Shown here: one piece after another, positions 6,259-45,925 of the stretch
How positions within the stretch are numbered: position 1 is the stretch's first letter
Layout of the letters: every line of letters begins with the position of its first letter
NCBI GenBank assembly: GCA_032718475.1
Contig: JAUCBJ010004836.1
Coordinates: 1-46,204 of the forward strand
DNA: 46,204 nt
Source: Nemertoderma westbladi
Lineage: Eukaryota; Animalia; Xenacoelomorpha
Direction: 5' to 3'
The notes under the pieces: generated by a model
The model's input: the letters and a program-made list of their open reading frames with translations, nothing else
Database searches by the model: none
What the model was told of the DNA's origin: nothing
Made by a program: the position numbers and the translations under genes

Positions 6259-7919
6259 TGTACTTTTTTAAGCAAGATATGGGAAAACGGTTTCCATATT
6301 TGGATTCAGCATGAAATTCTGCATCAGATAGGATATGTTTCAAAAATTCGACTTTTTAGTCAGATAATGCACTACCCCCCCCCCCCCCCCCCCCCCCTTA
6401 AATAGAATAAATGACCTCCTATCTATGGATTAATATTTAGCTGAGCGTTTAAAACTCTACATGTTTCTTCATTATGCGTAATTAATATTCTAGAATTGAG
6501 TAAAAAAACGTTAGAATTATACCGATTTACGTGTCAAAATGTATACTTTAGAATTTTTATAATATCACCGGAAGTTAAGGTGAAATTTAAAACGGTTTTC
6601 TGATTCCGAATCTGCAGATGAAGGGGTTCTAATGATATCTAGATTTCATTCCAAAGACGAAAAATAAAGCCGACGGAGGTGCCTAAATATTGCGAAATAG
6701 GCGATTTTTGACGGCTTGTTGTATCGTAATAGCTCATAAATTGATAGCCAACAAACTATCAACATACCAAATTTCGAAGCATATGATTGAAATTTGAAAA
6801 AAAATAGGGAGGGGGGGGGGGGGGGGGGGGACTCCGACCCACTAAAAATGGATGTTGTATTAAGGGAGATGGTGTATATTTATCAACATGACGCGTTTAC
6901 ATGTTGGACTTACGTCGTAAACGTATGGCTCATCACATACCGAAAAATATTGTCGTACTGCTATAAAATTAGTAAATTATGAAGAAGCTGCGATAAAATT
7001 AGGAAATCCCCCCCCCCCCCCCCCCCCCCCCAAACAAATAAAATATTTGGACTATATCATAACTATAATCGACGACGATTGTGCCAAGCGAGCTTAGCAC
7101 AATATATTACAATACAATAATAGTATGGCTGAGCTGAGCCCAAGATAGTTAAACTTCCGTTGAAACGAAACATTGATATGAAACATTTCGATTCACGATA
7201 AATTATAAAAATTCAATTTCCGTACGAATTTAAGCAACAAAATAAATCCAACCTACACCAACAACTGTAATTAGCTGAAATGTTTTATGAATGTATGTAC
7301 ACCCCTGTAATACAGTATTTTCCTATGTAATAGGCCTACGTAATATAATTATATGAATCGTTGTTGATTCGTTGTTAATTTTAATATACAGTTAAAAGCA
7401 AATTTGCGATATACTGCGAATGTACACCATGACTAGAATATGGAGTACCAGGATATAAACCGGTTCTGCCCCCTCCCTCAAAAAAAATTTTATTACAATT
7501 CGTAATGAAATTGCATAATCTTTGACATTTTTTCTTTCAACCTTTAGCTACTGTACAAGCGTTTGTAAAAGGCTTTTCCGTCGATATCGCACCAGTAACA
7601 CGGCAGTTACTCTTCAACGTTATGTACAGTGGTTGGTTTGTTGTGAGATGTGTGCGTCGAAAATCACATCGTTTTGCATTAGCGCGAGGCTATTTTATTC
7701 TATTTAAAATATACGCCGTTATTCTGGAACATTTGATTTATGTATGAATAGTTGTTATGTAATAGTATTATTGCACTGGTATTTTTGCGCCGATATTCAC
7801 ATAGCTTTACATAATATATTGCATTGCAGTATTGGAGTAGGCCTATTGCTGTATTGTTGCTTGAGTTCATTACGCCTCTCAATTCAGTCAATCAATTTCT
7901 TTTTTTCGCGCAACAACCC

Positions 7920-8026
7920 TATTGGAATTGAGCTGTTAATGCAACTCGAATAAAATAATATTATAATATGATTGAACTTCAACGAGGGTTGAACCAGCAC
8001 TATACGTGCGTTTCGGCATATCAGGC
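7920..8026 (-). mobile_element. Partial copy of the hammerhead/tRNA-like repeat (3' half of ribozyme plus B box)
   Basis: Minus strand GCCTGATATGCC-GAAA-CGCACG-TA-TAGTGCT-GGTTCAACCC; shares the flank ttggaattgagctgttaa with 38500. Confidence 0.65.
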
Positions 8027-8405
8027 TGTAAAAGCTTTTGCAGCAAAAATGTATCGTTTTGGGCAATACGCGAACTACTCTAAACGCAGCAATATCTCAA
8101 GGTAGTTGAGAACATATAAACTTACGCCTTGTTGCGTTTACTTTTGGTATATGATTCTGTTGACGAAATCACTCAAAAACTGAACCCTGGTTTCTTTGTT
8201 ACCGTACCCACTGTGCTGTGCTATCCAAACGGCCAATCAACGCAATTTTCATTTCATCCGGCCGTAGAGTTCCATTACACAGGAAACTGAATCCCCTAGT
8301 TACGGACAGCTGTCATGGATTACTGGCTCTCGATTGGAGTTTTGAACAAGATTCAAAGAATTCCCCTTTTTACTGGTGTTTATAAACACAGAGTACGCCT
8401 AGGTT

Positions 8406-10420
8406 AGCCTGTATACCCTCGAAACAGGAAACGGGCCCCCTGGACTGACAACAAAATTCAGAAGTGCCGAAATGACCTCTACAAGGCGCAGAAAGAGTCC
8501 CGACTCAAACAGACTACAGCGGCCAAGAATGCAGTTAAGGCTGCATCTAGGTCCCTGAACAGGCAGTACTCTGTTAATTTAAAGGAGCTAATAAACCAAC
8601 AGGTTGATGCCATCAATGATGCTGACGACAGCAGGCAATCATCCCAGGCATGGAGATCGATCAACTTGCTTACTGGGCGGAAAAGCCAACCAACCACCAA
8701 GGTTAAGGCTGAATCACCAGCTGATCGCCTCAATGGTTGGAAGGCCCACTTTGAAAAGCTCCTCAATAATGACAGGGTATTGCCTGATAACTTTATAGAA
8801 GTAAAAGTGTCTGAGTCTGTACTCCCAGATATTCCCATTGGTGATATCTCCTTTGCAGAAGTGAAGGCTGCTGCAAAGAACTTTAAACCAATCGTGCCAG
8901 TGGAGTAGATGGTGTTCCCCCTGAGGTCTTTAAAATACCTGAGTGTTTCAAGCTCATCTATCCCATCATAGTAGACATGTACCGAACAACAAGAGTCCCA
9001 CAAGAAATGAAAACAAATAAGTTGGTGCCAGTTCCCAAGAAGGGCAACCTAACTCTCTATGGTTCTTTTCGGGGAATCTCATTGATCTCGATTGCTGCAA
9101 AGCTATACAATATAATTCTATTAATTCGCATCAGGGATCCCATTGAGAGACTGCTCCGTGGAAATCAGAATGGGTTCCGTAAAGGTCGCGGGACCATGGA
9201 GCCCATTTTGGCACTTAGAAGGATAATTGAAGAGTTATCAAAAAAGAAAGACAGGCATCTGGCTGTTATCTTTGTTGACTTCTTCAAGGCCTTTGGTTCA
9301 GTCTCTCGCTCACGTATGTTCAGCACACTTTCATTATATGGGATTCCTGATGAAATTTTGCAGCAATCAGATCAGTATACGATGGTTCGACAACATTTGT
9401 GTCTACTGTTGACGGTGACACAGAACCATTTGAAGTGTTATGGGGCGTCCTCCAGGGAGACACACTTGCACCATTCTTGTTCATAATTGTTGTTGACTAT
9501 GTTCTACGCATGTCCTTAGATCATCATAATGATGATGGGGTGATGATAACTCCATCTACTGGCTCCAGAAGTCGAGGAAATCCTGCCAAGTACCTAACTG
9601 ATCTAGACTTTGCTGATGACTTAGGAGTACTCTCAGAATCACTAGAGGGAGCCCAACGGCTCCTCAGCTCATTAGAACATGCTGCTTCTAGTGTTGGTCT
9701 TTTTATTAACTCCAGAAAGATCAAAATTTTGACAGTTAACTTTGAAAGTCCTCAGCAAATCTCTGATCGGATGAACATAAGCTCAAAAGATGGTATGCTT
9801 GAGCATGTGGATGACTTCTGTTACCTGGGATCATGGATCCGGAAGTTGTGAGGACCTTCGAATAAGTAAGGGAAAGGCATGGGCAGCCTTGAATAGGCTT
9901 TCTAGGATTTGGAAGTCACCGAGAATTAATCGGAAACTTAAGGTCCGATTATTTAGAGCAGCAGTATTTCCAGTACTCCTCGATGGGAATCCATGCTGGG
10001 CTCTAACTGCTGAGGACACCAAATCTCTGAATGGCACATTCACAAGAATGCTACGCCGGGTTCATTGTGTCAAGTACAATGCACACATCTCCAACCAGAC
10101 ACTATATAACATTGGAGGTGTCTCATTGGTTCCCCCAAGCTTGACACTAGAACAAAATCGCCTCCGCTTTGCAGGACATTGCTTTCGCCATGAGGACCAG
10201 CCAGTGCATAATCTTGTACTTTGGCAGCCTCATGGAGTGAATAAGCATGGTGGACAGCCCATGACTTTCTTGAGACGCATCTTAAAGGACACTGGCCTTG
10301 AAGATGCGGATGATCTAGCAAATGTCATGGGTGATAGGGAGTTGTGGCGGTGCAATTTTGTCGATAAGCCGGCACAGCATTCTTAAAAATGCAGATGCAA
10401 TGCAGCATGCCGATCCTAGT
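8406..10420 (+). mobile_element. 5'-truncated RTE-clade LINE, RT pseudogene with frameshifts
   Basis: PVPKKG, QNGFRKGR, FVDFFKAF, GVLQGDTLAP, DFADD and YLGS motifs across ORFs 8666-10386; 14-bp TSD AGTACGCCTAGGTT (8392-8405, 10421-10434); short TAG tail. Confidence 0.92.
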
Positions 10421-11051
10421 AGTACGCCTAGGTTTAGGCAGTCAGCTAGTATTCAGCCCAGAAACCAACAGTGGCGTGAATTATCGAGCACAAGTAAATT
10501 ACCTGCACTCACTGCATTGACTCGCCTTTTTACTGAACGGCAAACATCTGACTGCTGATTAACTGCCGCCACTGCTGTTATTTACTGTTTTGTACTGTTG
10601 TTCATTGCTATTTGGTATATTATTGCTCGATGTTTATATTTGGGGAACACGTATACGTAATCGATAATCTCAACTAACTTTCTTTATTATTAAGAGGTAA
10701 GCAGAAGGGAAGTTCGAGTAACTATTTCGGTTCGTGTGGTTTGTGTGATATTTATGCTATTTCATAATACCAACATGAATGAGCTAAATTTCTCCTTATA
10801 CATGAACAAAATTGGTAACAGTCAGCAAATCAGCGTGTTTCCGTATTATTATCAGAGAAGTGAGTGCGACTACATAATACTACATTCCTAAAGAATGTAA
10901 ATCACAGTGTCTCGATTAAATAATCCGTTGTAATTATTGTAAGTCATGACTCTGTCTAGTATTTAGAGTTAACTAATTACCAATTGAGAAAATAAGTCAA
11001 TTAAGGTAAATGTTCGGGGTCTTACCTGGCAGAAACAATAAATACTGATGT

Positions 11052-11090
11052 TAGTGAACGTTTTCGCCCTTACCGGGCTACTTCAGACTA
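11052..11090 (-). ncRNA. Degenerate minimal type I hammerhead ribozyme, Penelope-like terminus remnant
   Basis: Minus strand TAGT-CTGAAGTA-GCCC-ggtaa-GGGC-GAAA-ACGT-TC-ACTA: stems I and II pair, stem III is palindromic, core has one deviation. Confidence 0.5.
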
Positions 11091-11856
11091 TATTATGATA
11101 AAAGTTAAATTATTGTAATAATAATTGCATCCCGCCACCAATTCAAAAATCCCTCTCTATTATATTACGAGGGTTCTATGCCATTAGGTCCTAATAACAT
11201 GTTATTAAGGAGAGATACGCACAAAACACAGGTTAGTAAAATACACAATCTGTAGTTTATTTAAAGCTACCATTAGATATGAGTAAAATGTATTTTATTA
11301 AATCGGGGTTGCTATGACAAAAAGCGATAACGAAATCGTACTCCGGTTCATGTATACGTGTTTATAAGGTATTAAAAGATGTGTAAAAGAATGAGTAAAA
11401 TGTATTAATAATATTGGGGTTAATGTGTTATGACAAAAGGCAATAACGAAGTCGTACTCCTGTGTGGGGTTAGGACAGGTATGATGTACAGTACACGAAG
11501 TATTAACTTACTTATTACTAACTTACGTATTAATTTACTTAATTACGATGCAACCCCTGGCATTGGCCTACCGTTTTATATCACAACTTAGTATTTAGAG
11601 CGCAGCATCTGAAAGGAACTGTTAATAATACTACCTTGAAAGTGAACATAGTTTTTGGAGATTATATAGTAGAGATCAATCGAATAATACAAATTAACCA
11701 ACTTATCACGCCGACAGAATTCAGTCTCCCACACACGGTGAGTTATAAGCCGCACAAGACTGTCTTCTACTGTTGTTTGATTTTGTATGGGCTAACAAAC
11801 AATATAAGACACGTAAATTAACAGGTTAAACTGTTAAAGGTCTAAAAGCGCGAACA

Positions 11857-11910
11857 CAGGCCTCGTCAGTAGCGCTAACCAGTTCAAGTACTCTCTCCCG
11901 GCCACTTGCC
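11857..11910 (-). mobile_element. Partial copy of the hammerhead/tRNA-like repeat (A box plus 5' half of ribozyme)
   Basis: Minus strand GGCAAGTGGC...TGAACTGGTTAGCGCTA-CTGACGA-GGCCTG matches 38627-38667. Confidence 0.6.
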
Positions 11911-12959: not shown

Positions 12960-13772
12960 CTGAAAATGAGAAATATTTACAAATCAAGATGTAAGTTAGA
13001 ATAGAATTACAGTAAGAGTGAGAAAATAGTCAAGAGTGGACTTAACGCCATACAGATAGTGGAGTCTCACATGTCGTTTCACATTTCCCGTTAGGGTTCA
13101 TCCATAAATCAGGTCACGCTGCGGACAGGTCTGCAATATCGTGAGGACTCATTGAGGTTTAACGATATCATTCAATAAATGGGGAAAAATACAACTCTTA
13201 CAATAATGAGAATAGTATTTTTTATTTTTTATTTATTTAGATTATGAATCTGCCAATATGTAGACAATCTTCCATGCTACTAATACCCCACATGTTCAAC
13301 CAGCAATTAAACCGCTAAGAAGGCGGCCACATGACGAGCTCAAGATCATCTGTAAGCCTCAACTTAATCCTCCATTAATTGTTAAATGTACAAACCACAT
13401 AGAAACTCTACAAGCGTATTATATTTTATTCTTTTGTAGCCAGTGGAGGAAATTATACTGTTTACAAACCAGACTCTCTCACTAGTTAGTAACAGCAGGC
13501 CTACAGTCCTACTAAATTCCCAAAAGAACCTAAGTAACAATACAGTCCTACTAAATTCCAAAAAGAACATTATAGAACCCAAAAGAACCACCCAAAAGAA
13601 TCTAAAGTAGCGAATTGTGAGAGTATAATGCAATTAATTGTTATGACATACTTTAACAACTTTACTATGTTTAGTATAATGTATAATATATTTATATACG
13701 TATTCAATTGTTTCTATCCCAACATTATTTACGCGCACCAACCCTATTGTGACTTTTATTATAAACTACCAT

Positions 13773-15003
13773 TGTTTGCGCTTTCAGACCTTTGGCAGTT
13801 TAACCCGCCAAATTAGGATGTCTTCTAGATAATAAATCGCTTTTAGCCTCTGACAAGTATTTGATTCACTACACTAGTTGAAACCAATCTGTGCGCGATC
13901 ATTCACCCGCTGGATATACCCGGGAGATTGACTTCGACGGCTTAATCTTATTGCTATGTAAGCCTAATGTATTATTCGACTGACAGTATTATATAATCTC
14001 TGACAATATTATTCACCTTCGGGGAATATTAACAGTTCCTTTAGGACGTGGCGCTCTATCTATATAAACAGAGTTATGACTTAAACTACATGCAACGATA
14101 TGGCTTAGTTACAATTCACATATATGGCGCATTCTTTAGGAAATGCTTCGTTATCAGTCTCACTCATACACAATGCTGCACAATACAGCACACTGATCTG
14201 CCGATCTTCACTGATTTTAGTCACATATAAAAGGAACACAGACCGACTCATGTAGGGTCTATCAGATAACATTAGATTCACTTCAAACCACTTTAACATA
14301 AGTCACAATCGTTATATGTAACCTGTCTCTCTTACCTTCGGTATATCAAGAATATTGGGTTTTCGGGGTTATTTCTCGTTATTCCAAATATAATATTTCA
14401 TCAACCATATAATGAATAACCGACAGTAAATAGCAGTATAACGTTATAAAAGTATGCACGACAAGACCAGCCAAGCATTGAGTAAGTTGTTAACCATTGA
14501 GTTACCCAGTGTGAATGGTACATGCAGATAACGGATATATGTCCTTATAATTAAGCCTACTAGTGTTAGGCTAAAAGCAGAAAAGCACAAATATTCCAAA
14601 AGCCGTTCTTTCTTGGCTCAGGACTGAATGATAACACTGCCCATAAAGCATTGCGTGATTTCTAGGAAATTTCTGTACAAGAACAGTAAAAACGCTCTGA
14701 TTGGTTGACTGAACTGAGAGGCACCGTAGAACAAAGAAAATCGACACGTATACAGCTCAGCTGTTAACCGTCGTCATAGTAACTACTGTTTCAAGAGGAT
14801 CTAGCTATTTTGCGTTATAGAATTGCCATAGAATCACCAACCATGTCCCCCAAAGTACACATACGGAAGAAATAGCTCTTAGGTCCTCTAAAAAACACCG
14901 ATACAGCAATAATACGGCCTCTTACGCCTACTAAACCAACTACAGAGTATTTTACGGGAAAAATAAGGAAAAATAACCGGGCAATTCCGCAAAAGCTTTT
15001 ACA
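13773..15003 (-). repeat. 3' LTR
   Basis: Same length as 24504-25734; I counted about 9 substitutions by eye. Confidence 0.97.
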
Positions 15004-15011
15004 CCGCTCCC
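15004..15011 (-). other. Short polypurine tract (GGGAGCGG)
   Basis: Purine-rich run abutting the 3' LTR on the coding strand. Confidence 0.55.
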
Positions 15012-15642: not shown

Positions 15643-16580
15643 TTAGGGTAGCACTAGATCTTTGAACAGTGAATACAGTCCGCGAGGATCCGCGACACCA
15701 CCAGGATCGCAGGTCTGAGGTCCAACTAAGGAATGAGGAGGTTTGACCGAGTATTCCGGGACTCTGATCGTAGGTTTACTCCAGGATCGTTCGAGCCGAG
15801 TGAGCATAGGTGATACGTCAAACAAGTTTCGCTCGAAACTCCAGTAAATATAACGAGCACAACTGTGTTTAACACAACGTTTCCGTGGATGTTTATGTCT
15901 TTCCGTTTATTGGCTGGGTCTAGGGCATTTATCGTAATAATACCAAAAACGCACGTCTTGTAGGGGAAACGCGAGTGATCTCTCTCCAGCTTACAATATT
16001 CCTCCATCCGTTCGAAGCTATCCGGTACAACAGGTAGCGATCGATCGGCGGTAAGATACATCATAGTGGAATAGAGCCGTTTGAGTTCTACCATGCGGTC
16101 ATGATGTATACCTTGAGGATATCGAGTTTCTAGATTCTGTTGACTGGCAATATTGAGATAGGTCTCTCTTAGGAATTCTAGATAATCGTTGAAGTCGCGA
16201 CGTTTATCAGGTTCTTCAACGTCTTCCCTCTCGAGTCTGTTTCGAATAGAGTTCTCGTGTTCTATTCTCGATTTATCGTTTCGACTCCGCTGGGTATGAT
16301 ATTTAAATAAAACCATTTCCCTTTCGGTGTCTATATCGTCGGTGTCGTGTAAATCAATAGGATGACCAGTAGTCAAGAAGTCCATATACGTACCATTACG
16401 ATGCGTATAGCGAGCGGTGAATTTTCCATAGTCTAATTCACGCGTAAGTTACTTCCAGGAAATCGTAGGTTCGATATAACGACCATCATCCTCCGTAGTA
16501 GTTGGACTAGTATCACCGCGTATCAAGCTATCAACAAACGCTTGAAAGTAGAGTATATCGCTCCCTGATACCAAGACCAT
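15643..16580 (-). pseudogene. Extra ORF of unknown function between pol remnant and 3' LTR
   Basis: The 219-aa ORF 15726-16385 extends in frame to ATG 16580 across a single TAA (16449-16451). Probable frameshifted C-terminus in ORF 15643-15825. Confidence 0.55.
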
Positions 16581-18245
16581 CTTCTATCAACTCCGTCATA
16601 TCTGCTATATATGAGTTTATTAATATTATAATGAGTTTATATTTAGGCTAGCGAGCGTCGCTGCCTACCCCAATCAGCCCCCGGACAGTGCGAGATCCTC
16701 AGCGCCGATGTGTCGTCGCCGCTGTACTTTCGCCAACGACGTAGCCGCACAACGACAACGACAACCGGCACAAGTCACTCGACTGTCTGTCCCAAAGGCT
16801 TAGATACACCTCAGGTTCTTACTGGAGAGTTAGGGTTACTTTCACAATTGCGACTCGCTACTGTAAACACACCTTAGTAGTAACATTCGCCTATAAACTC
16901 ACAAATACCACACACACAACTTGTCACAAATTACACACACTCGGGTCACTTGTCCGTTAGTCAGTGCCTTCCAGAATGTCACGTTATTATCATGTATCCT
17001 TGGATACTAGCAGTGCGCTATTTATTCCCTATGCTATTCAATGGGACAAGCTTTCTATTGTTCTTTTAACTCAATTCTAATTCTAGCGTGGTTGTTGCTA
17101 TGGTGACATTATGCAAAGCTAGCGGTAGAATTAGGGTAATTCCAATGCATACAGATCTGGGATGTTATTTAATAGTAATTCTTTAATGGTCAATGTCCTG
17201 TTTTATACATGGCTTTATGAATTTTATCGGCTATTGACTATGTTTGGGAGACTTTCGCACACTCATACGCATAAGAAGATAAATCTCCGCTCCCTTGATC
17301 TATTAATTAATGGAATTTTGGGAATGTTATAAATTGCGTAAAAATGGCAATTTATTAAATTCATTAAAAGGCATGAATTTAAATTTATTCCCTGAAATTT
17401 TATTATTTGATAATTAAATTGACATGTTTTGATTCTAGAACATGTCTGGGGACACAAGATCCTTAATTCTATGAAAATTGTCTTTTTAAGAATATCGGTA
17501 AATGCTACGATGTCTTAATTGACTAGAATTGTTGAAGGATCTGAATTTTACAGATTTTGATTTATTAGATTTGCAAATATTAAATAATTAATATTTGAGA
17601 TGGGCACCGATTTATTCCAGAACTTGTCTGGGGACGTTAACCACTGATTCTAGAATTTGTCTTTCAAGTATATCGGTGGGTGCCGCGATATCTTAATCGA
17701 CTAGAATTACAGATGGTCAAAAGGTTTAACAGATTTATTTGCGTTTCACGCTACTGTTAGAGGGACATCACGCTACTATATGTATTATTTAATATACGGT
17801 ATGAGAGCAATATCGCACGAAGCAATGTCAGTGTGAAGAGGCAAGTCGTTTCCAAGGTCTACCCAGAGCTTGGTTTAGCCAAGACACGAGGATCTGAACT
17901 TTGCATTCCTAATACTCTGCCTACCAATAATACTTAAATATAGTAGTGGCTTTATTGTACTTTAATAAGTACGGATATTTCATCTTACTGTAGTCACGTA
18001 TTTATAATATGATACGGACAGTAAGGAAAGAGAAAAATAATTATTTCTCGCCGTCGCACTAAATATATAATATACGTAATTAAATAATAAACGCGAATAT
18101 ATATTGCACTAATCTACTAAATAATCTCTAAAATACCATACTACTAAATAAAATTAAATAAAACGATTAAAATAAAATTACATAATAATACATAAAAATA
18201 AAACAAATACAAAATAATAGAGTCACACACCCACTCCATATGTTG

Positions 18246-20774
18246 TTACGTTATGGAGTCCCTAGATGTTTGAAGGATTAGGGAGGTGGTCGTGGGAAGA
18301 GAATCTTGCCTTCCACAGTTTCCGGAGAGTCCTCCATTCCCTTCCGGTAAACACAAACGACCGACTGGGTGATTGAGTCGCTGCATCCCGAATACAATTC
18401 CAGGTTTCCTCTTCGTCCTGGAATAGTGACGATAGAAACATCGCTCTAGGTACACGACGGCCTTACAAAGCCGATTCCAGGAGCTATAGTGGTCCGTCGC
18501 TCCCTGCAGGAGAGGTGAGAGTCCCTGCGAGACGTCTGATGTTCCAGAGCTCCAATCGCTCTCTCTGATCTTCATGAAGGATCCACTCGCGGTGGGGAGG
18601 TCCAGATCCACGGCGTCGTCCCTGGCAATATGTAATACCGACAGATCTATCCCGGGTTCAAATAACTCCGATCCACCCGTCCGGGTTTTAGGTTTGACTT
18701 TCTCCGCTCCCTTGGCTGGTCTAATCTCAGTCGGAGTAAGATGGGGAGTTGCTCCTCTGGAAGCGATGTCAGTTGGATTAAACTTCTTGGGGCAATATCT
18801 CCATTGATCTACATTGGAGCTAATATCGTCATTATCTGAGGAGTATGGTGTTCCCTCAGTTGGGTCGTCTCCCTCACTAGTATCATCTTCCCATTCACTC
18901 ACCTGGCAGACGCGATCTTGAAGCAGTCTTTCTCTGAGCGTTCTTCGGGAAGGTCCAGTAAGGTACCAACCTACTCTAGTTCTTACCGCATAGGTCTGAA
19001 GTGGTTGCGGTTGAGCAGGTCGTTTCTCCAATGTCTCCAGCGCCTCATGCGCGTTTTGACCGATTAATATTTGTACTCCAGGATAATCGGTGTCGAATCT
19101 AGGAATGTTAAGTCGTTGGGCATGATCATCTTCGTCCCAATTATAAGGTTCCACTTGGGTGGTAGCGAAGTTCTTTATTGCCACCATTTTGACTGACCTT
19201 ATACTGTGTTCTCCTAGTTTATCCTGTGGAGTGGACAACTCACCTATATAATAGTCGGCAGCCACAGCATATTTCCAAACCTGCATGATCCCTGACATGT
19301 TTAGCTTGGTTCGGAACTTGGGTTGTCCAGCAAAGATGTCTTCGGCTAGTTCTTTATCGATGAATGTTCCTGTGCTGCCGGAGTCCAGGAGGGCGTTCAC
19401 TATATAGCTCTTCTGAGGTCCGTGGACCCGTAACTGGGCTACAAGAAATTCTCGGATTCCTACATTTGAAGTTGGCGCTTTCCAAGATTGTTGTTGATCT
19501 GAAGTAGTTAGGGTGAGGTCGCTGTCTGTGTCTTTCTCATACATGAGTGCTCGATACACTGCGGTGCTGTTTATTAAGTAACAGGATTCGTTTTGGTCAG
19601 AGAATTCGTCCGTATAGAATCCTTCCATCTCAGAACTTTGGTCAGTGTCGTTCACATCACTGAATTGGACATGTAGTTGTTCGGACTCACTTACCTGACT
19701 CGGGCTGCTTCGTTCGAATTCAGTGTGCAACAAGATATGATGTTTTGCACCGCACTTTGCACACCTTGCGTCGGAGTAACAGGTTCGCCGTTGGTGTCCT
19801 TGTCTGAGGCAATTATAACACAACCGCTTATCCCACATGACTTCCCGTCTCTCTTTTAATGATTTCTTTAAGAATTCATCGCACATATTCAAGCGGTGGG
19901 GCCCGTCGCACAGCACACATTTGGGTTTGATGTTACTTACTTTAACCTGTGCTGTGTGGTGCACACTTGTTCTTTCCTCGGGCTTTCTTACATGAATTCT
20001 CTTGGGAGACGTAGGAGGAGTTTTTCTTACCTGTTCTCTCCTGTCATTGGTTCGAGACTTGAATTTACTTACATGGTCTTTAGGCGTTTTATTGGCATAA
20101 TAAGATCTTTCAGTGTCTTTCCCGCTATCCTCTCCTTGAGAAGTCTGGCTTTCGCCGTCGTCTGTATAACACACTGGTGTTACCCTTCTCCTAGAAACGG
20201 GTTTCTCACTTACCTTGTTTTCCAGTGTCTTCTCTCTGGACTGCCTTTGGAGCTGTAATTTCACTTCTCCATCTAAGAATGACATGAGATCAGACATGGT
20301 AGGGTCTCGTCGTTGTTGTTCCATCATATATAACACCTTCTTGTCCCAGCGTGTACCTACTCCACCCTTGGGCAAAGTAGATGCTAAGGCTCCTACAACC
20401 ATAGAATTCTGGTATTCATGAGACTTACCTAACCAATCTAGTTGTCTACAGATCTCCTGAATCTCATCGGAAAACTCTATAATCCCGCTGCTAAGAAACT
20501 TTCGGGGCGCCATTAATTTTGCATATAAATACCTAGCTATGTTAGTCCTATTACCATACCTGATGTTTAGTGTATCCCAAACTTGTCTTAATCCATCTGG
20601 ATGTCCAATAAATTTTAACGCCATTGACTTGGGAGGTCCTTCCAAGCACTCGATGAGGAATCTAAGTTTCTCTCCATTAGATAGCACAGAGTTCTGTATG
20701 TTATCTTTGTAATATTCATTAAAAGGTAACCATTTCATCTCATCTCCATTGAACTTGACGATCTCTCCCACCAT
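18246..20774 (-). CDS. BEL/Pao Gag capsid (DUF1759-like), triple Zn knuckle, aspartic protease, and remnants of RNase H tail, linker and integrase tail
   Basis: KFNGDEMKW...LEGPPK...LNIRYG; CVLCDGPH, CYNCLRQGH, CAKCGAKHHILLH; LLDSGS; RTRVGWYLTGP; QWRYCPKKFNPTDIASRG; YSSWNRL; HPVGRLCL. Confidence 0.9.
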   Translation of the reverse strand: MVGEIVKFNGDEMKWLPFNEYYKDNIQNSVLSNGEKLRFLIECLEGPPKSMALKFIGHPDGLRQVWDTLNIRYGNRTNIARYLYAKLMAPRKFLSSGIIEFSDEIQEICRQLDWLGKSHEYQNSMVVGALASTLPKGGVGTRWDKKVLYMMEQQRRDPTMSDLMSFLDGEVKLQLQRQSREKTLENKVSEKPVSRRRVTPVCYTDDGESQTSQGEDSGKDTERSYYANKTPKDHVSKFKSRTNDRREQVRKTPPTSPKRIHVRKPEERTSVHHTAQVKVSNIKPKCVLCDGPHRLNMCDEFLKKSLKERREVMWDKRLCYNCLRQGHQRRTCYSDARCAKCGAKHHILLHTEFERSSPSQVSESEQLHVQFSDVNDTDQSSEMEGFYTDEFSDQNESCYLINSTAVYRALMYEKDTDSDLTLTTSDQQQSWKAPTSNVGIREFLVAQLRVHGPQKSYIVNALLDSGSTGTFIDKELAEDIFAGQPKFRTKLNMSGIMQVWKYAVAADYYIGELSTPQDKLGEHSIRSVKMVAIKNFATTQVEPYNWDEDDHAQRLNIPRFDTDYPGVQILIGQNAHEALETLEKRPAQPQPLQTYAVRTRVGWYLTGPSRRTLRERLLQDRVCQVSEWEDDTSEGDDPTEGTPYSSDNDDISSNVDQWRYCPKKFNPTDIASRGATPHLTPTEIRPAKGAEKVKPKTRTGGSELFEPGIDLSVLHIARDDAVDLDLPTASGSFMKIRESDWSSGTSDVSQGLSPLLQGATDHYSSWNRLCKAVVYLERCFYRHYSRTKRKPGIVFGMQRLNHPVGRLCLPEGNGGLSGNCGRQDSLPTTTSLILQTSRDSIT

Positions 20775-22227
20775 CTCTCTAACCTACTTTCCTTTACGGT
20801 TCCCTTTAACTGTTAAACAGTCCCTTCTAACTCTCGGACCTGTTGGGAGGAGCGCACTCGATTCTCCTCCATCTTTTCGAGGAGAATGTCCATCCCCCGC
20901 CGTCTCTCGTCCACCCAATCAACCGCCGAAACGGGATCCGCCAACGTTGTAGCGGGCGGACGAGGGACAACGGGCGACAAATCATGAATATTTCGCTCGG
21001 AGTCCAGGGCATGAACTGTCTCATGGGCTGTTCTGCTGGGCACAGGTAGCTTAGTGCTGTGCAAAGGGAATTGAGAGGTAGGTTCAGGGAGTACAGGTGT
21101 CTCCACGACCGAAAGGGTGGCTTCGGGAACAGGCCTAATTATTTCAGGCTCATCTACTATAGTAGGGAGTCTCTCTATTGTAATTATTTGGTCTGTGGGT
21201 TCTGTACTACCTAAGTTGGTGTTATTTAGTTGCCTTCGAACAGCTGGAGGCAAATCAGGCATTTCTGACGGTGGGATGTTCTTTTACGTCTGCTTAGGTG
21301 AGATCTATTTCCTTTGCCTTCAGTGTCGGTGGTATCGCCTTCCTCAGATGATGTATAACCTTGTCTTTTGGGAGTAGATCGATTCATCATCTGCATATTA
21401 CTAGCTGTTAACTGTTTATTAAAGTTGTCTTGTCTCTCTTGAAGATTTTCCAACTCTAGTTGGGTTGTCTCTTCAGATGCCCTCCGTTCTGCTTCTGCCA
21501 CTGCTATTTTTCTTTCCGCTTCGGCCGCTGCCACTGCCGCTGCTGCTGTCTTTCTATCTTCTATACGTTTTTTCTTTACTTGTTCTTCTTGGACTCTAGT
21601 GATGCGGAGGAGTTCATCAAATTTAGCTTGGTTCGCAGCTAACATTTCCGCATCGATTGCGTCCAGCACAAGCTTGGTTCCTTCACTATTAGGGCTAAGC
21701 CCCTCCAGCCTTCTCCTCAACTCTTCATCTCCTACAAAGCGTTGATAGTCTGACAGATAGATGTCAATAGCATCCCTCTTATGCGGTTTCTCTGCTGTCA
21801 CTTCGCTTTCTTCTTGAGAAAAAGTGGCGTCGGTTGATTCTTCATAGGTTGGCCGCTCATCATAAACCTTATCCGCCATCTTCGCTCCACGTTCGGGCAT
21901 CCGCTCAACAGTATCCGAACTACTGGAGCTATCGGGCCGCTGAAAACTAGGTTCTTGGCTAGGATGTTGCTGCTGTTTGACAGCTGCTTCTTGATCCCGC
22001 TTGACTTGGGCCCGAGTGCCTATGGCAGACCAACGGCGCTTCACTAACTTCGCAAATTGCGAAATCGCTTCTACCAACCTAGGTTCTGACACAACCACTG
22101 CAGGGGTTGCCCTTCTTACAGTATGAGGGGTTTCAGACCTCGGTCTGGGATTCTCTACACTTTGATCTGAGAAACAGGCTGTTGTTTCTAGGAGACTATC
22201 TGACAGAGTTTGCCTTGTGTCAGCCAT
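20775..22227 (-). pseudogene. N-terminal part of gag (coiled-coil, Pro-rich), broken by two frameshifts and a stop
   Basis: ORFs 21226-22227 and 20813-21262 join by restoring one A near 21283. TAA at 20813-20815, then a further 1-nt shift before 20774. Confidence 0.7.
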
Positions 22228-23559
22228 GTTTGATTGTATAGTTGAATGCCTACTGCTATATTACAGTTAAAGCAAGTCTAGTAATTCAGTATCACTGTTA
22301 GCCTAACAATTAATTACCGATACTGCTACTCAGTGTAGCGTGATATATATAATATATTAGAATACCGGTATGCTTATAGTATATATATAAGTATTATTAC
22401 AGACTAGGTTTGTTACAGAATACCGGTATAATTTTAGCACAAATATATAAATATATAATAGGCCTATCGTGAATACCGGTATACAGCCTACTTATAGTAT
22501 ATAAATATAATTCTGGACTAGAATTAATTGCAGAATACCGGTATGATTTCAGCCTAAATTTATAGAAATAAAGATAATAGGCCTATCGTAAATACCGGTA
22601 TGTCAATTATTTTAAATAATTGAATTTCTGAATTTTAAGGGTTACTTGGTTACTTGAACTTACTTTATTACAGTTATTTAAGCAGTAGTCCAACTGATAT
22701 TGAGACCTAATTGTTATATGGCAGGCCTACTATTTATAAATCGTTTGAGTTGATTTATAATATATATATACCCGTTTAATGGGTTTTGTCAATGTTTGAA
22801 ATAAATGTTATTATTTCTGGGGGAGTCACTACACATAAGCTGTGCACTCTCAGTGGAGTGCTACTTGTTAGACACTAAAACAAATAATTCTAATTTACCT
22901 AAGTTACTTAATACTACAAATTACGTACAATTCGGGTTGAGATTACAATCTCTAAATAAACACAAAAATTTAATTACAAATACACAAATACAAATTTTTA
23001 GGGTAATTTTACAAGAAGTCTACTAACCAGCCTAACAAAGGGTTAGAATATCTGGTTATTACAACGGACAGGTTACTACGGTATTTGAGAATAATAAGTA
23101 GTAGTAAATATACTGCGTTGTCCAGATATGAAAATACCACCGCCTGATGACCTATAACCGTATCGCTATAGGTACTACGTTATGTATCACGGAGTGTTCC
23201 TACCCAGAAGTTAATTACCGCGGTCTACCAGAACCAACGTGCCTATTAACTACTTTACAACACAAATACACTGCCTACACACTAATCACCTTCGGAAAGT
23301 ACTGTACACTAAACCCTAAATTAGGTACAAGTACTTGTACAACAAATAATTAGTAGTTAAAAATACTTGAACAGCTAAAAGAACCACGGTATCTGCCGGA
23401 GTGACCAAAGCACAAAATCTCCAGTCTTTACCTACGCCGAGCAGCCCTGATGTAGTACCGGGGTTAGTTTAACTATAACGGTATGTATAACAAACACAAT
23501 TACTGTAGGAATAAACTTGGGGATATGAATGTTGCGAATAATAGCATAAACTCTGAATA

Positions 23560-24130
23560 ATAAATATTACGCTACGCGTACAAACTACTCAAACAAAATG
23601 CAGACCAAATACTGACAGACTACTATCAAGCCTAAACAAACTACGGTATATGCAGACTCCAAAATGATTAGTTAGTATGCGTTCTAACCCAGTAGTATGA
23701 CTTATTCTTTCACAGGGGGTTTACCTCACAGCACTTGAAGCCCCTACTTTCCTAACTTAGCACTTTATCGGACAGATGCTCTACACACACCGAAATTTCC
23801 TCAAACCCAACAACAGCCAGACAACTATCCAGCCTACAAATTATCTAAATAAAATTATACGCTACCCGTACAGACTACACAAACAAAGTACAGACCAAAC
23901 GCTGGCGGACTCCTATCAGGCCTAAATAAACCACAGGACATGCAGACTCCGAAATGGTTAAGTAGTATGCGTTCTAACCCAGTAGTACGACTTATTCTTT
24001 AGATGGGGGTTTACCTTACAGCTATGGCTGCCCCTACTTCCTAACCGTTCTTTATCGGACATACACTCTACATGCACTGCAATCCGTTCAGACCTAATCA
24101 ACAGTTAGCCAACAGTCAAGCCTACAAATT
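23560..24130. repeat. About 290-bp tandem duplication in the element leader
   Basis: tgcagactcc...agtatgcgttctaacccagtagta occurs at about 23651 and 23941. Confidence 0.8.
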
Positions 24131-24491
24131 GTCTGTACAATCTGATCAGGCTTACACGCCTTCTGTTCAATATTGGCCTACAAATAAATAAAACTGACAG
24201 AAATAAGTAAAATCTCAATAAAAAACCAGGGCGGGCCCTCCCTGATTAATTATTAAGGCCTACTGGTATATAATAATCAAAATCGAATAATACTGCTATA
24301 CCTGTACTGGAAGTACCGGTTAGGACAGTTGAACCTACGGGCCTACAGCAGTACTGGTTCAGGCAGTTGGGCCTACAGACCTACAGCAGTACCGGTTCAG
24401 GCAGTTGGGCCTACAGACGTACCGCAGTACCGGTTCAGGTTTACCGGTTGACCGGTACTTTCAACTTTATTGCTTACTGCAATAAAGAAGC

Positions 24492-24503
24492 TATATCCGT
24501 TAT
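24492..24503 (-). promoter_or_regulatory. Non-tRNA primer-binding site candidate, complementary to LTR 25259-25270
   Basis: Plus strand tatatccgttat directly abuts the 5' LTR. Its reverse complement ataacggatata is at 25259-25270 and 14528-14539. Confidence 0.6.
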
Positions 24504-25734
24504 TGTTCGCGCTTTCAGACCTTTGGCAGTTTAACCCGCCAAATTAGGATGTCTTCTAGATAATAAATCGCTTTTAGCCTCTGACAAGTATTTGATTCAC
24601 TACACTAGTTGAAACCAATCTGTGCGCGATCATTCACCCGCTGGATATACCCGGGAGATTGACTTCGACGGCTTAATCTTATTGCTATGTAAGCCTAATG
24701 TATTATTCGACTGACAGTATTATATAATCTCTGACAATATTATTCACCTTCGGGGAATATTAACAGTTCCTTTTGGACGTGGCGCTCTATCTATATAAAC
24801 AGAGCTATGACTTAAACTACATGCAACGATATGGCTTAGTTACAATTCACATATATGGCACATTCTTTAGGAAATGCTTAGTTATCAGTCTCACTCATAC
24901 ACAATGCTGCACAATACTGCACACTGATCTGCCGATCTTCACTGATTTTAGTCACATATAAAAGGAACACAGACCGACTCATGTAGGGTCTATCAGATAA
25001 CATTAGATTCACATCAAACCACTTTAACATAAGTCACAATCGTTATATGTAACCTGTCTCTCTTACCTTCGGTATATCAAGAATATTGGGTTTTCGGGGT
25101 TATTTCTCGTTATTCCAAATATAATATTTCATCAACCATATAATGAATAACCGACAGTAAATAGCAGTATAACGTTATAAAAGTATGCACGACAAGACCA
25201 GCCAAGCATTGAGTAAGTTGTTAACCATTGAGTTACCCAGTGTGAATGGTACATGCAGATAACGGATATATGTCCTTATAATTAAGCCTACTAGTGTTAG
25301 GCTAAAAGCAGAAAAGCACAAATATTCCAAAAGCCGTTCTTTCTTGGCTCAGGACTGAATGATAACACTGCCCATAAAGCATTGCGTGATTTCTAGGAAA
25401 TTTCTGTACAAGAACAGTAAAAACGCTCTGATTGGTTGACTGAACTGAGAGGCACCGTAGAACAAAGAAAATCGACACTTATACAGCTCAGCTGTTAACC
25501 GTCGTCATAGTAACTACTGTTTCAAGAGGATCTAGCTATTTTGCGTCATAGAATTGCCATAGAATCACCAACCATGTCCCCCAAAGTACACATACGGAAG
25601 AAATAGCTCTTAGGTCCTCTAAAAAACACCGATACAGCAATAATACGGCCTCTTACGCCTACTAAACCAACTACAGAGTATTTTACGGGAAAAATAAGGA
25701 AAAATAACCGGGCAATTCCGCAAAAGCTTTTACA
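24504..25734 (-). repeat. 5' LTR
   Basis: Direct repeat of 13773-15003; CCAAT (accaatcagag) on the minus strand near 25430. Confidence 0.97.
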
Positions 25735-25959
25735 ACCATAAAGAATATTGCTGCCGAATTCGTAAAGTACCATGACGAAATTCTGGAGACTTTCCGCTCA
25801 TGCAGGTCAAAAAAGAGTTCCTCAAATGAGGATGAGAGAGTAATATCCGATTTTTTATCATCGATCCTGAACTTTTACATTGTACTGCTCGAAAAGACCG
25901 CTAACTCCTGTCAGGAAGTAGCCGAAGTTCAGGGTAAATTAGCGGATGCGTGCCAAGAA

Positions 25960-27360
25960 ACTACAGGGGCGTTGTAAAACCCTGCACCCCGCCAGGACTA
26001 CTCGCCTAACACTCACAACATCAATGTACCTACAGGGGCGTTGTAAAACCCTGCTCCCCGCCCGGACTACTCGCCTAACACTCACAACATCAATGTAGCT
26101 ACAGGGGCGTTGTAAAACCCTGCTCCCCGCCCGGACTACTCGCCTAACACTCACAACATCAATGTAGCTACAGGGGCGTTGTAAAACCCTGCACACCCCG
26201 CCCGGACTACTCGCCAACACTCACAACATCAACGTAGCTACACGGGCGTTGTAAAATCCTGCACCCCGCCCGGACTACTCGCCTAACACTCACAACATAA
26301 CGTAGCTACATGGGCGTTGTAAAACCCTGCACCCCGCCCGGACTACTCGCCTAACACTCACAACATCAATGTAGCTACAGGGGCGTTGTAAAACCCGGCA
26401 CCCCGCCCGGACTACTCGCCAACACTCACAACATCAACGTAGCTACATGGGCGTTGTAAAACCCTGCACCCCGCCCGGACTACTCGCCTAACACTCACAA
26501 CATCAACGTAGCTACAGGGGCGTTGTAAAACCCTGCACCCCGCCCGGACTACTCGCCTAACAGCTACATGGGCGTTGTAAAACCCGGCACCCCGCCAGGA
26601 CTACTCGCCTAACACTCACAACATCAACGTAGCTACAGGGGCGTTGTAAAACCCTGCACCCCGCAAAGGACTACTCGCCTAACACTCACAACAGCAACGT
26701 AGCTACAGGGGCGTTGTAAAACCCTGCACACCCCGCCCGGACTACTCGCCAACACTCACAACATCAACGTAGCTACAGGGGCGTTGTAAAACCCTGCACC
26801 CCGCCCGGACTACTCGCCTAACAGCTACATGGGCGTTGTAAAACCCGGCACCCCGCCAGGACTACTCGCCTAACACTCACAACATCAACGTAGCTACAGG
26901 GGCGTTGTAAAACCCTGCACCCCGCAAAGGACTACTCGCCTAACACTCACAACATCAATGTAGCTACAGGGGCGTTGTAAAACCCTGCACCCCGCCCGGA
27001 CTACTCGCCTAACAGCTACATGGGCGTTGTAAAACCCGGCACCCCGCCAGGACTACTCGCCTAACACTCACAACATCAACGTAGCTACAGGGGCGTTGTA
27101 AAACCCTGCACCCCGCAAAGGACTACTCGCCTAACACTCACAACATCAATGTAGCTACAGGGGCGTTGTAAAACCCTGCACACCCCGCCCGGACTACTCG
27201 CCAACACTCACAACATCAACGTAGCTACAGGGGCGTTGTAAAACCCGGCACCCCGCCAGGACTACTCGCCTAACACTCACAACATCAACGTAGCTACAGG
27301 GGCGTTGTAAAACCCTGCACCCCGCAAAGGACTACTCGCCTAACACTCACAACAGCAACG
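25960..27360. repeat. Minisatellite, about 21 copies of a 69-70-bp unit plus about 52-bp truncated variants
   Basis: Unit ctacaggggcgttgtaaaaccctgcaccccgcccggactactcgcctaacactcacaacatcaacgtag. Confidence 0.97.
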
Positions 27361-33380: not shown

Positions 33381-33432
33381 TTAAATGTAATCATACATGT
33401 ATCACCAGAATATTTATACTAGTTATTCTTAC

Positions 33433-33592
33433 CGTTTAAGGCCATAAACCCAGCTGACAGCGATGGTCTCAGCTAATGCGATGATAAGCAGAGGAAAAGT
33501 AGCAGAGTACTGGTCAAACAGCTGGAGGACATATTCACCAGTACGGGAAGTAAAGCAGATCGCAAAAAGAAAGGAAAAAGTACAAAGACCAC
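33433..33592 (-). CDS. SLC6 transporter exon (TM9-TM10: GLCTFSFLF...GEYVLQLFDQYSATFPLL...VYGLKR)
   Basis: ttctag acceptor, gtaaga donor, 160 bp, phase 1 to 2. Confidence 0.95.
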
Positions 33593-33730
33593 CTAGAAAC
33601 AAAAACGTCCCCATTTAAGGATGGGACTTAAAAAAGTCATGTGTTATACTTTTATATAAAATATTTGATTTTATATATTATAAATTAAATTATTATATAA
33701 ATTATAATTACTATTATAATATATACTCAC

Positions 33731-33935
33731 CAGCAACGAGTTCTCTGCGGACGCCACGCATAATTTTCAATTCTATAAGCGGGGTGAGGACGCCTTGGAC
33801 ATACCCCAACATAGTGCCGAGACCAAGGGTTAGGAGCATGAGGAAGAATAGGGTGGACCATAGAGGGGCGGTCACTCCAAACTGGTTGATAGCCTCAGTA
33901 AACGCAATGAAGGCCAACCCAGTACCCTGGACAGC
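33731..33935 (-). CDS. SLC6 transporter exon (AVQGTGLAFIAFTEAI...WSTLFFLMLLTLGLG; EL4-TM8)
   Basis: ttacag acceptor, gtgagt donor, 205 bp, phase 0 to 1. Confidence 0.96.
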
Positions 33936-34099
33936 CTGTAACAGGGAAAATAGCATTTTGATAAGGTATGAAATACCTAAATCATGGCAATGAGTTGTTG
34001 AGTGCTCCACTCTTCTATGTGCTACTGATGATCTAGTGTGCGTTAGATGGTAAAAATCTCATGGGAAATACATGGACTCCATTGATATATATGTAAGGA

Positions 34100-35135
34100 C
34101 TGGTGCATGATTCCAACATATCATGTTTCCTTAGGCTCAATCGGGCTCTAATACCAAGAGTCAGCCAAAAAACCGTTCTACCGTTATAGCCGTGTACGAC
34201 GTTATACCCTCAGGTGCCCAACCATGGCGCTCCTGTACCAGGGGCTGCTGGTGCCGTGCATTTGTGATAGCATTGCCAATCTGATAAACGACCAAAACCT
34301 CTACATTGAGACTCTAACTGAACTTCATCTATAATATGGATTCAACCATTTCATCGCATCTCACTGCCTCAAGGATGATATTCGGGAGTTGCCTAAACTG
34401 ATAAACAACAACTTCCATGCCTTGGGGAGTTTCTCTTTAAAGTTGAATGGCGCAATTTCCCTGCTACTGAAGTGTGGGAATATCTCCAACTTCCACGCCT
34501 TATCCACAGTCACCACTCTGGTCGAAAAAGCTCCCTGGCAGGCTCCAGTACGAGTGGGCCAAGCAGTTTACTTTGCCCAACCTTCTGTCCTCTCAGCCAT
34601 CGAACTCAATCAATTTCATATGCAATCAAACTCATATTAATCGCATAAAAGTGAATTACTCAGAAACTCCCTGTAGCAACCCAAATCCCTAAGAACCCCG
34701 GAACTCAACTACCCTAATTCCTCTTCGGGATCGGCGTCTCACTGGGATAGCTCAAGGTTACCGATGTGTAACAAAGATAATGATACAACCATAACCATCC
34801 CGTTCGACCATCTGTGTGATGTGAGACTTTGTCTGCAAGTGTGGCCCAGCCATCCGGGGGCAACAATGGTTGTCAAAAATGCCAGGGTGACCACTCCATT
34901 CCATCCTGAAGCAGCTTCAAACAACTAATGGCGTGGGATTGAGCAACGCATGCCAAATACATGGGACTTTGTTTCGCTTGTCTCTTAAAGAAACTCTGAT
35001 CCATCGAATGCTTCATGAAGAAGCCATGTGAACCTAACGGCTATTTTAAGCGACATCATGCACTGCTTCACCACACCCCTTGCTTAACAGCTTCCAACCC
35101 CTTGGCCCCTGCAGAACCGATCAAATTCCATGTCG
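34100..35135 (+). mobile_element. Highly degraded CR1/L2-like RT remnant
   Basis: GC-richer block; LINNNFHALGSFSLKLNGAISLLLK resembles the LIN.SL..G.FP..LK.A.V.PLLKK motif. Weak support. Confidence 0.3.
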
Positions 35136-43287: not shown

Positions 43288-43641
43288 AAATATGGCAATT
43301 ATTTAATTTTGATCTGGGCAAGAATTCAAATCGTCAAAAAGTATATTTATCCTTTAGGTAGTGTATCTGGCAGCATTAATTGTTTAGATTTTAAAGATTA
43401 TTTTGAGATAATTATATACAGATAATATACAGAGATTCAAAAATTGGGATTTTCGAAAAATTTACAAATATCAAAATAACAAACAAATTCCTTTAAACAA
43501 ACCATCAAGGTAAACAAACCACCACCCATTTATTAATAGTATGTTAGTGCTTTCAACGGTAATACAAGAACAGCGACAATTTTAACCAGTAACCATTACA
43601 TTATATTAAATTACGGTAACAACGCATTTACTTGAACCTAC

Positions 43642-43843
43642 CGAGAATGCTAAAGACCACGGTTCCAGCGTAGATGGAAGTAAGACAGTTAATTATTGAG
43701 ACACGGATAGCGTCACGGAAGGTGTTGTTACCAGGTGGATTATAGCTGGACATCGCAATGAGGCCACCAGAGGAGAGCGAGAGAGAGAAGAAGATTTGGG
43801 TTGCTGCCTCCAACCAAACTTCAGGATCCCCCAATCGATACCA
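43642..43843 (-). CDS. SLC6 transporter exon (TM6-TM7: WYRLGDPEVWLEAATQIFFSLSL...SSYN...VFSILG)
   Basis: atgcag acceptor, gtaggt donor, 202 bp, phase 0 to 1. Confidence 0.96.
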
Positions 43844-44269
43844 CTGCATGAAACATATAAACTTGTTATTATAACTTTTGTTTGGCAAAGCTTTGCAAAG
43901 TCGGCAAATGTTGGATCTAACTGGTTACCTCCGGGTTGGAAATCTTACACTCTAACCATTCAACTAGCGGCTCAGGTAAAAGGGAGACATAGAAATACTA
44001 CCTGATACCTTGTTTGTCCGCAAAAATTTACCTCCTCGTGGCCTCCCATCTGTCAATACCTTAATCTGTTGTAACTGTGCTCAACCCTACTGTACTTGGC
44101 CCTCTTTAACCACTCGCTACATGTTAGTAGATTTCGTCAGGTGGTGAGAGTTCGAAATCGTACTAATCATACGTTTAGTTAAATATCGACCTGCCGTCTT
44201 TCACTTTCACTCTGATTTCGGTCAGGGATATCTTTTTGGCGGTAACGGGCGCTGTTACCGCCAAAAAGA

Positions 44270-45495
44270 AATCAGAATAGAACATCAGAAAACGGAAGTC
44301 AGAAACCGGAAGTCAGAAAATGGAACTCAGAAAAAAAGAAAAAAGAAATGAAAGTGAGAAAAAAGAAAAGGAAGTGAGAAAAAAGAATTGGAAGTGAGAA
44401 CAGAGAAATAGAAGCCAGTAAATGGAACTCAGAAAATGGAACTCAGAAATTAGAAGTCAGTCTGTCTGTCAGTCTGACTTTCAGACAGTAGCTTATTAAT
44501 TATCCCATCCAGCATTTCATTCCCAGGCGATGATGCTTATATTCAGGAACCTAGCAAGGCCTTGGCAGGCACCGGTATCTCTAGCCAAGGCTATGGATCT
44601 ACTTATTTATGTTCATATTTCTATTTTACAGCGCTGCAGTACGGGTACCGGTATAATATTGACAGAATACAATTATTTTAAATATTGCAACCCCCACTTC
44701 AAATATTTAATTTTGAGCCAGATAAGATTCCCCTAGTACCAGTACGTAGGAGAGATTTACACGATTCGATTATTATACTGGTGGTAGAGTCTGTATTTAG
44801 GGTTAACAATTTAATATAAGTTAATCAAGGTCTTGCATGCTTATATAAAGTATTTATGAGCACTTTTCCCCGTATTTTCTAAACCTCTTCCTATTTTGGG
44901 CGTTGCCTAGCATTGCCCAGCTGGATATAAATAGCACATGAGATATATTGCACTTTCTGACTTCCATATTCTGACTTCCATATTCTGACTTCCGTTTTCT
45001 GACTTCCATTTGCTGCCTTCCGTTTTCTGACTCCCATTTTCTGACTTCCGTTTTCTGACTTCCATTTACGGACTTCCATTTTCTTACTTTCATTTTCTGA
45101 CTTCCATTTGCTGCCTTCCGTTTTCTGTCTCCCATTTTCTGACTTCCGTTTTCTGACTTCCATTTACGGACTTCCATTTTCTTACTTTCATTTTCTGACT
45201 TCCATTTGCTGCCTTCCGTTTTCTGACTCCCATTTTCTAACTTCCGTTTTCTTACTTCCAATTTCTGACTTCCATTTTCTGACTTTCTCACTTCCATTTT
45301 CAGACTTTCACTTTCTGGCTTCCATTTTCTGACTTCCATTTATTTTTTTTCACTTCCACTTTCTGACTTTCATTTTTCTTTTCTGACTTCAATTTTCTCA
45401 CTTCCTCTTTCTTGCTTCCATTTTTCTGACTTCCTTTTCCTGTTCTGGCTTCCATTTCAATTTTCTGACTTCCATATTCTGAGTTCCGTTTTCTT
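44270..45495. repeat. Two inverted arrays of a 15-bp repeat (ttctgacttccattt), foldback-like
   Basis: About 44280-44460 carries ggaagtcagaaaat units; about 44955-45495 carries the reverse complement. Confidence 0.85.
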
Positions 45496-45814
45496 GCTTA
45501 TCACATGACCATGCTAGCACTCACGTATATTAATGTTAAGCTATTGTTTGGTGTATATTATTTATCTGTACAGTGCATTATAACCAACCTACATAGGTAA
45601 CTGCATCCTAATAGTATGCCATCACCAATAGATAGAGAGAGAAAGATTAATTGAGACAAAGTAACCAATTAATCAAAATGGCATCAGCCAATAGCAGAAC
45701 AGCTGCCCTGAAACCTCATTGTTCAGGGCAGAAACCATTAGCCCTCTCTGAATCTAACAGTTTATCTAGCAATATATTTATCCTCACCCATGTCTCCATA
45801 TTGAATGCACTCAC

Positions 45815-45925
45815 CTCGGGTGTGAACATTCGAGATAATCCATCCGCACATCCCGGAAGAGTAATACCCCGAAAGAAGAATATTGTTAGCACGAGGTAGG
45901 GAAACGAAGCCGTGAAATAGACAAC
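45815..45925 (-). CDS. SLC6 transporter exon (TM5: [37 protein letters not shown])
   Basis: tatag acceptor, gtgagt donor, 111 bp, phase 0 to 0; not in the ORF-track frame. Upstream exons lie beyond the window. Confidence 0.96.

Follow-up and report, generated by a model that had tools for sequence, protein, structure and literature searches.

How can an LTR retrotransposon start reverse transcription when the usual tRNA primer site is missing? The question is raised by a minus-strand LTR element of 11,962 bases in Nemertoderma westbladi (contig JAUCBJ010004836.1, positions 1 to 46,204; this whole stretch of 46,204 nucleotides is called the window below). At its 5′ end, the 12 bases that follow the LTR are complementary to a segment within the LTR itself. 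An earlier note on this DNA had proposed a self-priming BEL/Pao retrotransposon. Tf1-like self-priming is probably the best reading, with the RT served in trans; the note had overlooked that the element carries neither RT nor integrase, so that a partner would be needed.

Anatomy and coding content of the element

Judging by the nine differences between its LTRs (four transitions and five transversions in 1,231 positions) and its intact 5-bp duplication, the element appears to be young and to have moved recently (Table 1). The long ORF at 18246–20783 contains DUF1759 (Pfam PF03564, E = 1.6e-13) as well as zinc knuckles and a DSG protease motif, the latter two read from the sequence. It ends in a weak piece that matches the RNase H part of a complete BEL/Pao polyprotein at 27%. 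The DUF1759 Gag, zinc knuckles, protease, TG...CA LTRs, target duplication and polypurine tract all agree with BEL/Pao; the lineage-defining RT is missing from the element. When four BEL/Pao polyproteins were compared with the whole window by tblastn, neither RT nor integrase was found, only Gag, protease and the weak RNase H-region piece. The element is thus a non-autonomous BEL/Pao derivative, whose priming would have to be served in trans by a partner RT. Its closest protein relatives carry Peptidase_A17, DUF5641 and rve and are mostly 25–37% identical, and because of this distance no RT-supplying partner could be named. ORF1 had no match in Pfam, and neither had the extra ORF in Pfam and Atlas.

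The splice-donor-like AG/GTAAG is invariant at 25066 (minus strand), 10697 (plus) and 411 (minus), and acceptor-like sites lie ahead of two ATGs of the element, at 22227 and 20774; in spliced messengers, the primer site and the leader of 2.2 kb may therefore be left out. We rejected a primer built by splicing, as nothing interrupts the 12-mer and the distance from it to the conserved donor downstream is ~190 bases. The long non-coding stretches of the element contain internal direct repeats with 73–81% identity (23552–24134, 24312–24439, 22360–22601 and 17429–17736). Outside the element, we observed exons of a host SLC6-type transporter on the same strand (Pfam SNF; 33429–34058, 43628–43924 and 45716–45925, minus strand), a tandem array of ~69-base units just beyond the 5′ LTR (25959–27360), a 14-base tandem repeat in both orientations ~600–900 bases apart (44263–45452) and a degraded BEL/Pao-type zinc-knuckle fragment (34865–35071, plus strand).

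Table 1. Features of the element and of related LTRs, in window coordinates
Feature	Position	Strand	Remarks
5′ LTR	24504..25734	-	1,231 bp, TG...CA, 99.27% identity to 3′ LTR
3′ LTR	13773..15003	-	1,231 bp, TG...CA
Target-site duplication ATGGT, upstream copy	25735..25739	-	
Target-site duplication ATGGT, downstream copy	13768..13772	-	
Primer-binding-site position ATAACGGATATA	24492..24503	-	abuts 5′ LTR; without TGG
Predicted self-primer TATATCCGTTAT	25259..25270	-	exact complement of 24503-24492
12-mer copy in 3′ LTR	14528..14539	-	unchanged
Perfect 9-bp hairpin directly behind primer site	24465..24487	-	pair probability 0.9-1.0 in all three folds
U5-terminal arm	24507..24521	-	predicted pairing with 24629-24617; resembles one Tf1 pretzel flanking stem
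U5 hairpin	24522..24543	-	two compensatory pairs versus sister solo LTR
Splice-donor-like AG/GTAAG	25062..25068	-	unchanged in the window's three related LTRs
ORF1	21226..22260	-	344 codons between stops; ATG at 22227
BEL/Pao Gag (DUF1759, zinc knuckles), DSG protease, RNase H-region remnant	18246..20783	-	
Extra ORF	15726..16448	-	240 codons, before 3′ LTR
Short polypurine tract GGGAGCGG	15004..15011	-	abuts 3′ LTR
Solo LTR of sister family	8027..11856	+	duplication CAGGC; two nested insertions
Third related LTR	1139-1	-	runs off window; U3 resembles that of the solo LTR

The primer-site position and its complement in the LTR

The first 124 bases of the leader are devoid of TGG, in agreement with the earlier note, which had seen no TGG-type tRNA site near the 5′ LTR. 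The note had also described the 12 bases abutting the LTR as the perfect complement of 25270–25259, and the same holds for the copy in the 3′ LTR. Exact pairing spans 12 bases and goes no further than the edge of the LTR, as described. The 3′-terminal base of the LTR segment is paired to the base directly behind the LTR and points into U5, a polarity suited to priming. When up to one mismatch was allowed, TATATCCGTTAT occurred in the whole window only in the two LTRs. A weaker 7-bp extension with G-U pairs (25279–25273 with 24488–24482) competes with the hairpin at 24487–24465. Rfam returned three weak matches in the window, none of them near the primer site, and no tRNA gene was found in the window. 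A match of the site to a tRNA end or fragment had been named as a refutation; within the 124 leader bases, we found no tRNA 3′-end (TGG) site.

The chance of such a 12-mer had been put at about 1e-4. When the LTR was subjected to dinucleotide shuffling, 4 of 30,000 shuffles contained the 12-mer. Under a looser test (a match of at least 11 bases starting 0–5 bases after the LTR), 78 of 30,000 shuffles scored, and among 9,468 other start positions in the internal region, one reached 12 bases and four more reached 11. Matches of this rarity (1 in 400 to 1 in 7,500) are expected now and then among many LTR elements scanned. The primer site begins with ATAAC, a 5-mer with a frequency of 0.0015 in the window whose likeness to Tf1 was noticed after the fact.

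For comparison, we scanned other BEL/Pao loci with an alignment of 23 polyproteins, for which 80 of 576 confirmed loci were listed. We examined 61 loci with long matches and used as the control set the 36 whose coding region is flanked by a repeat on either side. A TGG tRNA site was present in 35 of the 36, at most 9 bases from the repeat end in 30 and further on, as TGGTCC, in five because the detected repeat was cut short; the one locus without it (L074) is a tandem repeat. The best self-complement in all 36 was only 3–7 bases long. As these controls are distant (none is a close relative) and mostly derive from one assembly (31 of 36), they indicate that the element is an exception to the norm and do not tell what is usual in its own lineage. 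In four of the BEL/Pao loci (L018, L022, L024 and L045), a long and possibly envelope-like reading frame continues past integrase.

In predicted folds starting at 25270, 25279 or 25290, the 12-bp duplex had a pair probability of 0.88–1.0, and in these folds a U5-terminal stem lay on one side of the duplex and the 9-bp leader hairpin on the other. The energy of the U5-terminal arm was not above that of shuffles (8 of 40 were as good), and the flanking stems surpassed shuffles slightly at best (1, 2, 6 and 8 of 40). With regard to flanking duplexes like those of the Tf1 pretzel, the leader pairs locally, the energies of the flanking stems are near those of shuffles and the U5 stem is predicted. 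When the transcript was started near the Inr-like motif (~25357), the duplex fell to 0.5 with one choice of 3′ end and to ~0.1 with another, because 25322–25312 captures the U5 end; a start at 25480 gave 0.3. Self-priming would therefore need an RNA start close to the 12-mer. Two caveats of the earlier note stand here: no TATA box is found 25–30 bases upstream, the expected distance from the proposed start near the 12-mer, and an Inr-like TCAGTC lies near 25358. We rejected conservation of this Inr across the three LTRs of the window, since the motifs do not fall at matching positions in the alignment.

Copies, joints and sister LTRs

Contigs from four of seven listed sequencing runs, none of the seven on record as RNA, were aligned to 24200–25800. 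A contig of run X3, a second sample, with a depth of 1,329 covered 25140–25285 free of substitutions, with 14 gap letters at positions not given. A second contig of this run, with a depth of 419, covered 24433–24532 with two substitutions and three gap letters; 29 of its letters lie on the LTR side, two under the 31-letter bridging rule. For comparison, the long X3 pieces at the solo-LTR end had depths of about 17–50. The family is high-copy, and both the 12-mer and the primer-site region lie in multi-copy contigs, which argues that the TGG-less state is not a deletion in one copy, as the earlier note had allowed for. Summed depth over 24504–25171, which is not a copy number, was tenfold that over U3.

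Seven joints were listed between 25161 and 25277, and five of them rejoin at 25256–25260 (depths 60–786). The remaining two rejoin at 25237 and, in a contig with a depth of 33.5 that lacks the 12-mer or has diverged there, at 25277; one further joint at 25258 appeared in a separate joint table. Several subfamilies keep the 12-mer side and replace the 70–95 bases directly 3′ of the 12-mer. Since strong-stop DNA would in self-priming end right behind the 12-mer, template switches would leave joints at this place, although the joints may just mark an indel-prone stretch. No sequence was inserted at the LTR–leader junction in the 15 joints listed of 18. Among the 40 of 229 variant rows listed, none fell inside either 12-mer and no compensatory change in the 12-bp duplex was seen. 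A scan for the LTR-end pattern had no matches in metagenome, viral or prokaryote genome contigs, and the BEL/Pao alignment gave 47 pattern matches against viral contigs, none a confirmed relative.

The solo LTR of the sister family contains two nested insertions, a LINE (14-base duplication, RT at 8887–9486) and a ~630-base insert (12-base duplication). The host repeat has its empty-site form near 38625. We also observed a 238-codon ORF (1977–2693, minus strand) upstream of the LTR starting at 1139. A repeat at 7564–8026, considered as an LTR of the element's family, was rejected on comparison. Where the element has its 12-mer, the aligned solo LTR has CAAGTAAATTAC (10491–10502), which predicts a different primer site for the sister family, namely GTAATTTACTTG behind the LTR end at 11856. 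In contigs at this end (11770–11885), loose ends pooled from several records had an agreement of 0.42–0.53; in two runs they start with ATAAT, which may be due to A+T bias. Between the element and the solo LTR, two pairs of the U5 hairpin (24543–24522) differ by a double change from G-C to A-U and a further pair by a change from G-U to A-U, and a G-U intermediate was seen in contigs (loose ends before 11822–11824). This covariation supports a putative RNA structure at U5 and says nothing of the primer type.

Priming routes and their meaning

Self-priming is already known in the gypsy and copia groups. The 11 bases at the start of the Tf1 RNA pair with the primer site and RNase H cleaves between positions 11 and 12 (PMC7175516), matching what the earlier note had stated; a structured U5 stands beside the duplex in a three-duplex structure (PMC10085805); and the Tf1 site begins with ATAAC (PMC11042837). 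Start-site choice governs primer inclusion in Tf2 (PMC5341516), Tj1 of the Tf1/sushi group is treated in PMC4600332, and self-priming is predicted for Tcn1 and for copia TAR, Houba and Osr-1 (PMC6317226). Belpaoviridae, by contrast, are tRNA-primed from an 18-base site complementary to the 3′ end of a host tRNA (PMC8742986, ICTV profile). In the main text of a BEL/Pao survey (PMC3118150), the words PBS, primer, tRNA and self are absent. We found no report of BEL/Pao self-priming in the literature searched; subscription journals, Repbase entries or supplements may hold one.

The element resembles Tf1 and Tf2 of Schizosaccharomyces pombe and the Tf1/sushi Ty3/gypsy elements Tj1, Tosmo and Tcn1 in that the site after the 5′ LTR complements an LTR segment, over 12 bases rather than the 11 of Tf1. 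With Tf1 it further shares the first five bases of the site (PMC11042837) and, as predicted here, a structured U5 next to the duplex (PMC10085805). By its anatomy it would thus work like Tf1, yet it is not a Tf1/sushi member: its Gag is of the BEL/Pao and not the chromovirus type, and it has no RT of its own and no chromodomain integrase. The loop would measure ~755 bases, and RNA start, cleavage and the full three-duplex pretzel are only predicted here. DUF1759 Gag, zinc knuckles, protease, RNase H-region remnant, TG...CA LTRs, 5-bp duplication and short polypurine tract are shared with Belpaoviridae, whereas the 18-base tRNA 3′-end site (PMC8742986), RT and integrase are not. The plant Ty1/copia TAR lineage (Houba, Osr-1) is another case outside Tf1/sushi in which self-priming was predicted from sequence (PMC6317226), in a different superfamily and kingdom. 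The independent origin claimed by the earlier note is therefore not new as such.

If the element primes as Tf1 does, its packaged transcript would start at or just above the 12-mer, where one of the purines 25271 and 25269 would make a more plausible start than a 5′ end at 25270. The first 11–13 bases, containing the 12-mer, would pair with 24503–24492, and folding places this duplex between the U5 hairpin and the leader hairpin. By analogy with Tf1, the RNase H of a BEL/Pao partner would then cut in trans between 25259 and 25258, and the freed 3′ end of the primer would be extended into U5. The resulting 755-base strong-stop DNA would end at 25258 and jump to the 3′ R region. U3 and primer would thus come from the end of the acceptor RNA, and recombination joints would be expected right behind the 12-mer.

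On balance, we consider self-priming likely. Counted in its favor are the register, polarity and length of the match, the missing TGG despite recent mobility, the multi-copy state, the joints, the folds, the ATAAC start and the controls; the single copy adds modestly. Alternatively, the primer could be a host RNA that is not an intact tRNA 3′ end, for example a half-tRNA or small RNA, and the LTR match could mask the site by a pairing with a role in regulation or packaging. If transcription began near the Inr-like 25358, the 12-mer would indeed be internal and other pairings would win, but the exact fit is explained without any host RNA, and Rfam gave no match of note. In tRNAs, a U is expected directly before the anticodon, and the complement, CC-GUU-AU, lacks it. 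We therefore regard a host-RNA primer as improbable, even though half-tRNA primers are known in copia groups (PMC6317226).

A chance match combined with another priming route, such as the 9-bp hairpin behind the LTR, is also doubtful. The hairpin at 24487–24465 is perfect and stable, fungal GalEa copia elements and bivalve TRIMs without a tRNA site carry such hairpins (PMC5445492 and PMC6934838), and matches of at least 11 bases occur at 5 of 9,468 internal positions. However, the 12-base length and exact register of the match with the LTR end speak against this reading, as does the clustering of joints at the 3′ edge of the 12-mer. For GalEa, the authors found nothing in the LTR that complements the site (PMC5445492), whereas the element has such a segment. 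It is very improbable that a normal TGG site was lost privately in a dead-end copy with tRNA-primed relatives. Such a loss would suit an internally deleted element without RT or integrase, and distant BEL/Pao relatives do use TGG sites, but the depth-419 contig spans LTR end, site and hairpin, and the junction is free of inserted sequence in the joints listed.

Returning to self-priming, we would give an even chance to a wider scenario, in which a BEL/Pao lineage dropped tRNA priming and reinvented Tf1-type self-priming, converging on ATAAC, with an RT that cuts the primer in trans for high-copy non-autonomous families and a genomic recombination edge that marks the cut. If true, this would be the third independent origin of self-priming and the first in the BEL/Pao superfamily, so that all three LTR retrotransposon superfamilies would include self-priming lineages. 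The common ATAAC start is a testable hint at a requirement of the RNase H cut. Self-priming would also explain the failure of tRNA-based annotation to detect a primer site in elements of this kind. The element itself would be freed from the host tRNA supply and would likely escape silencing when tRNA fragments are directed against the primer site.
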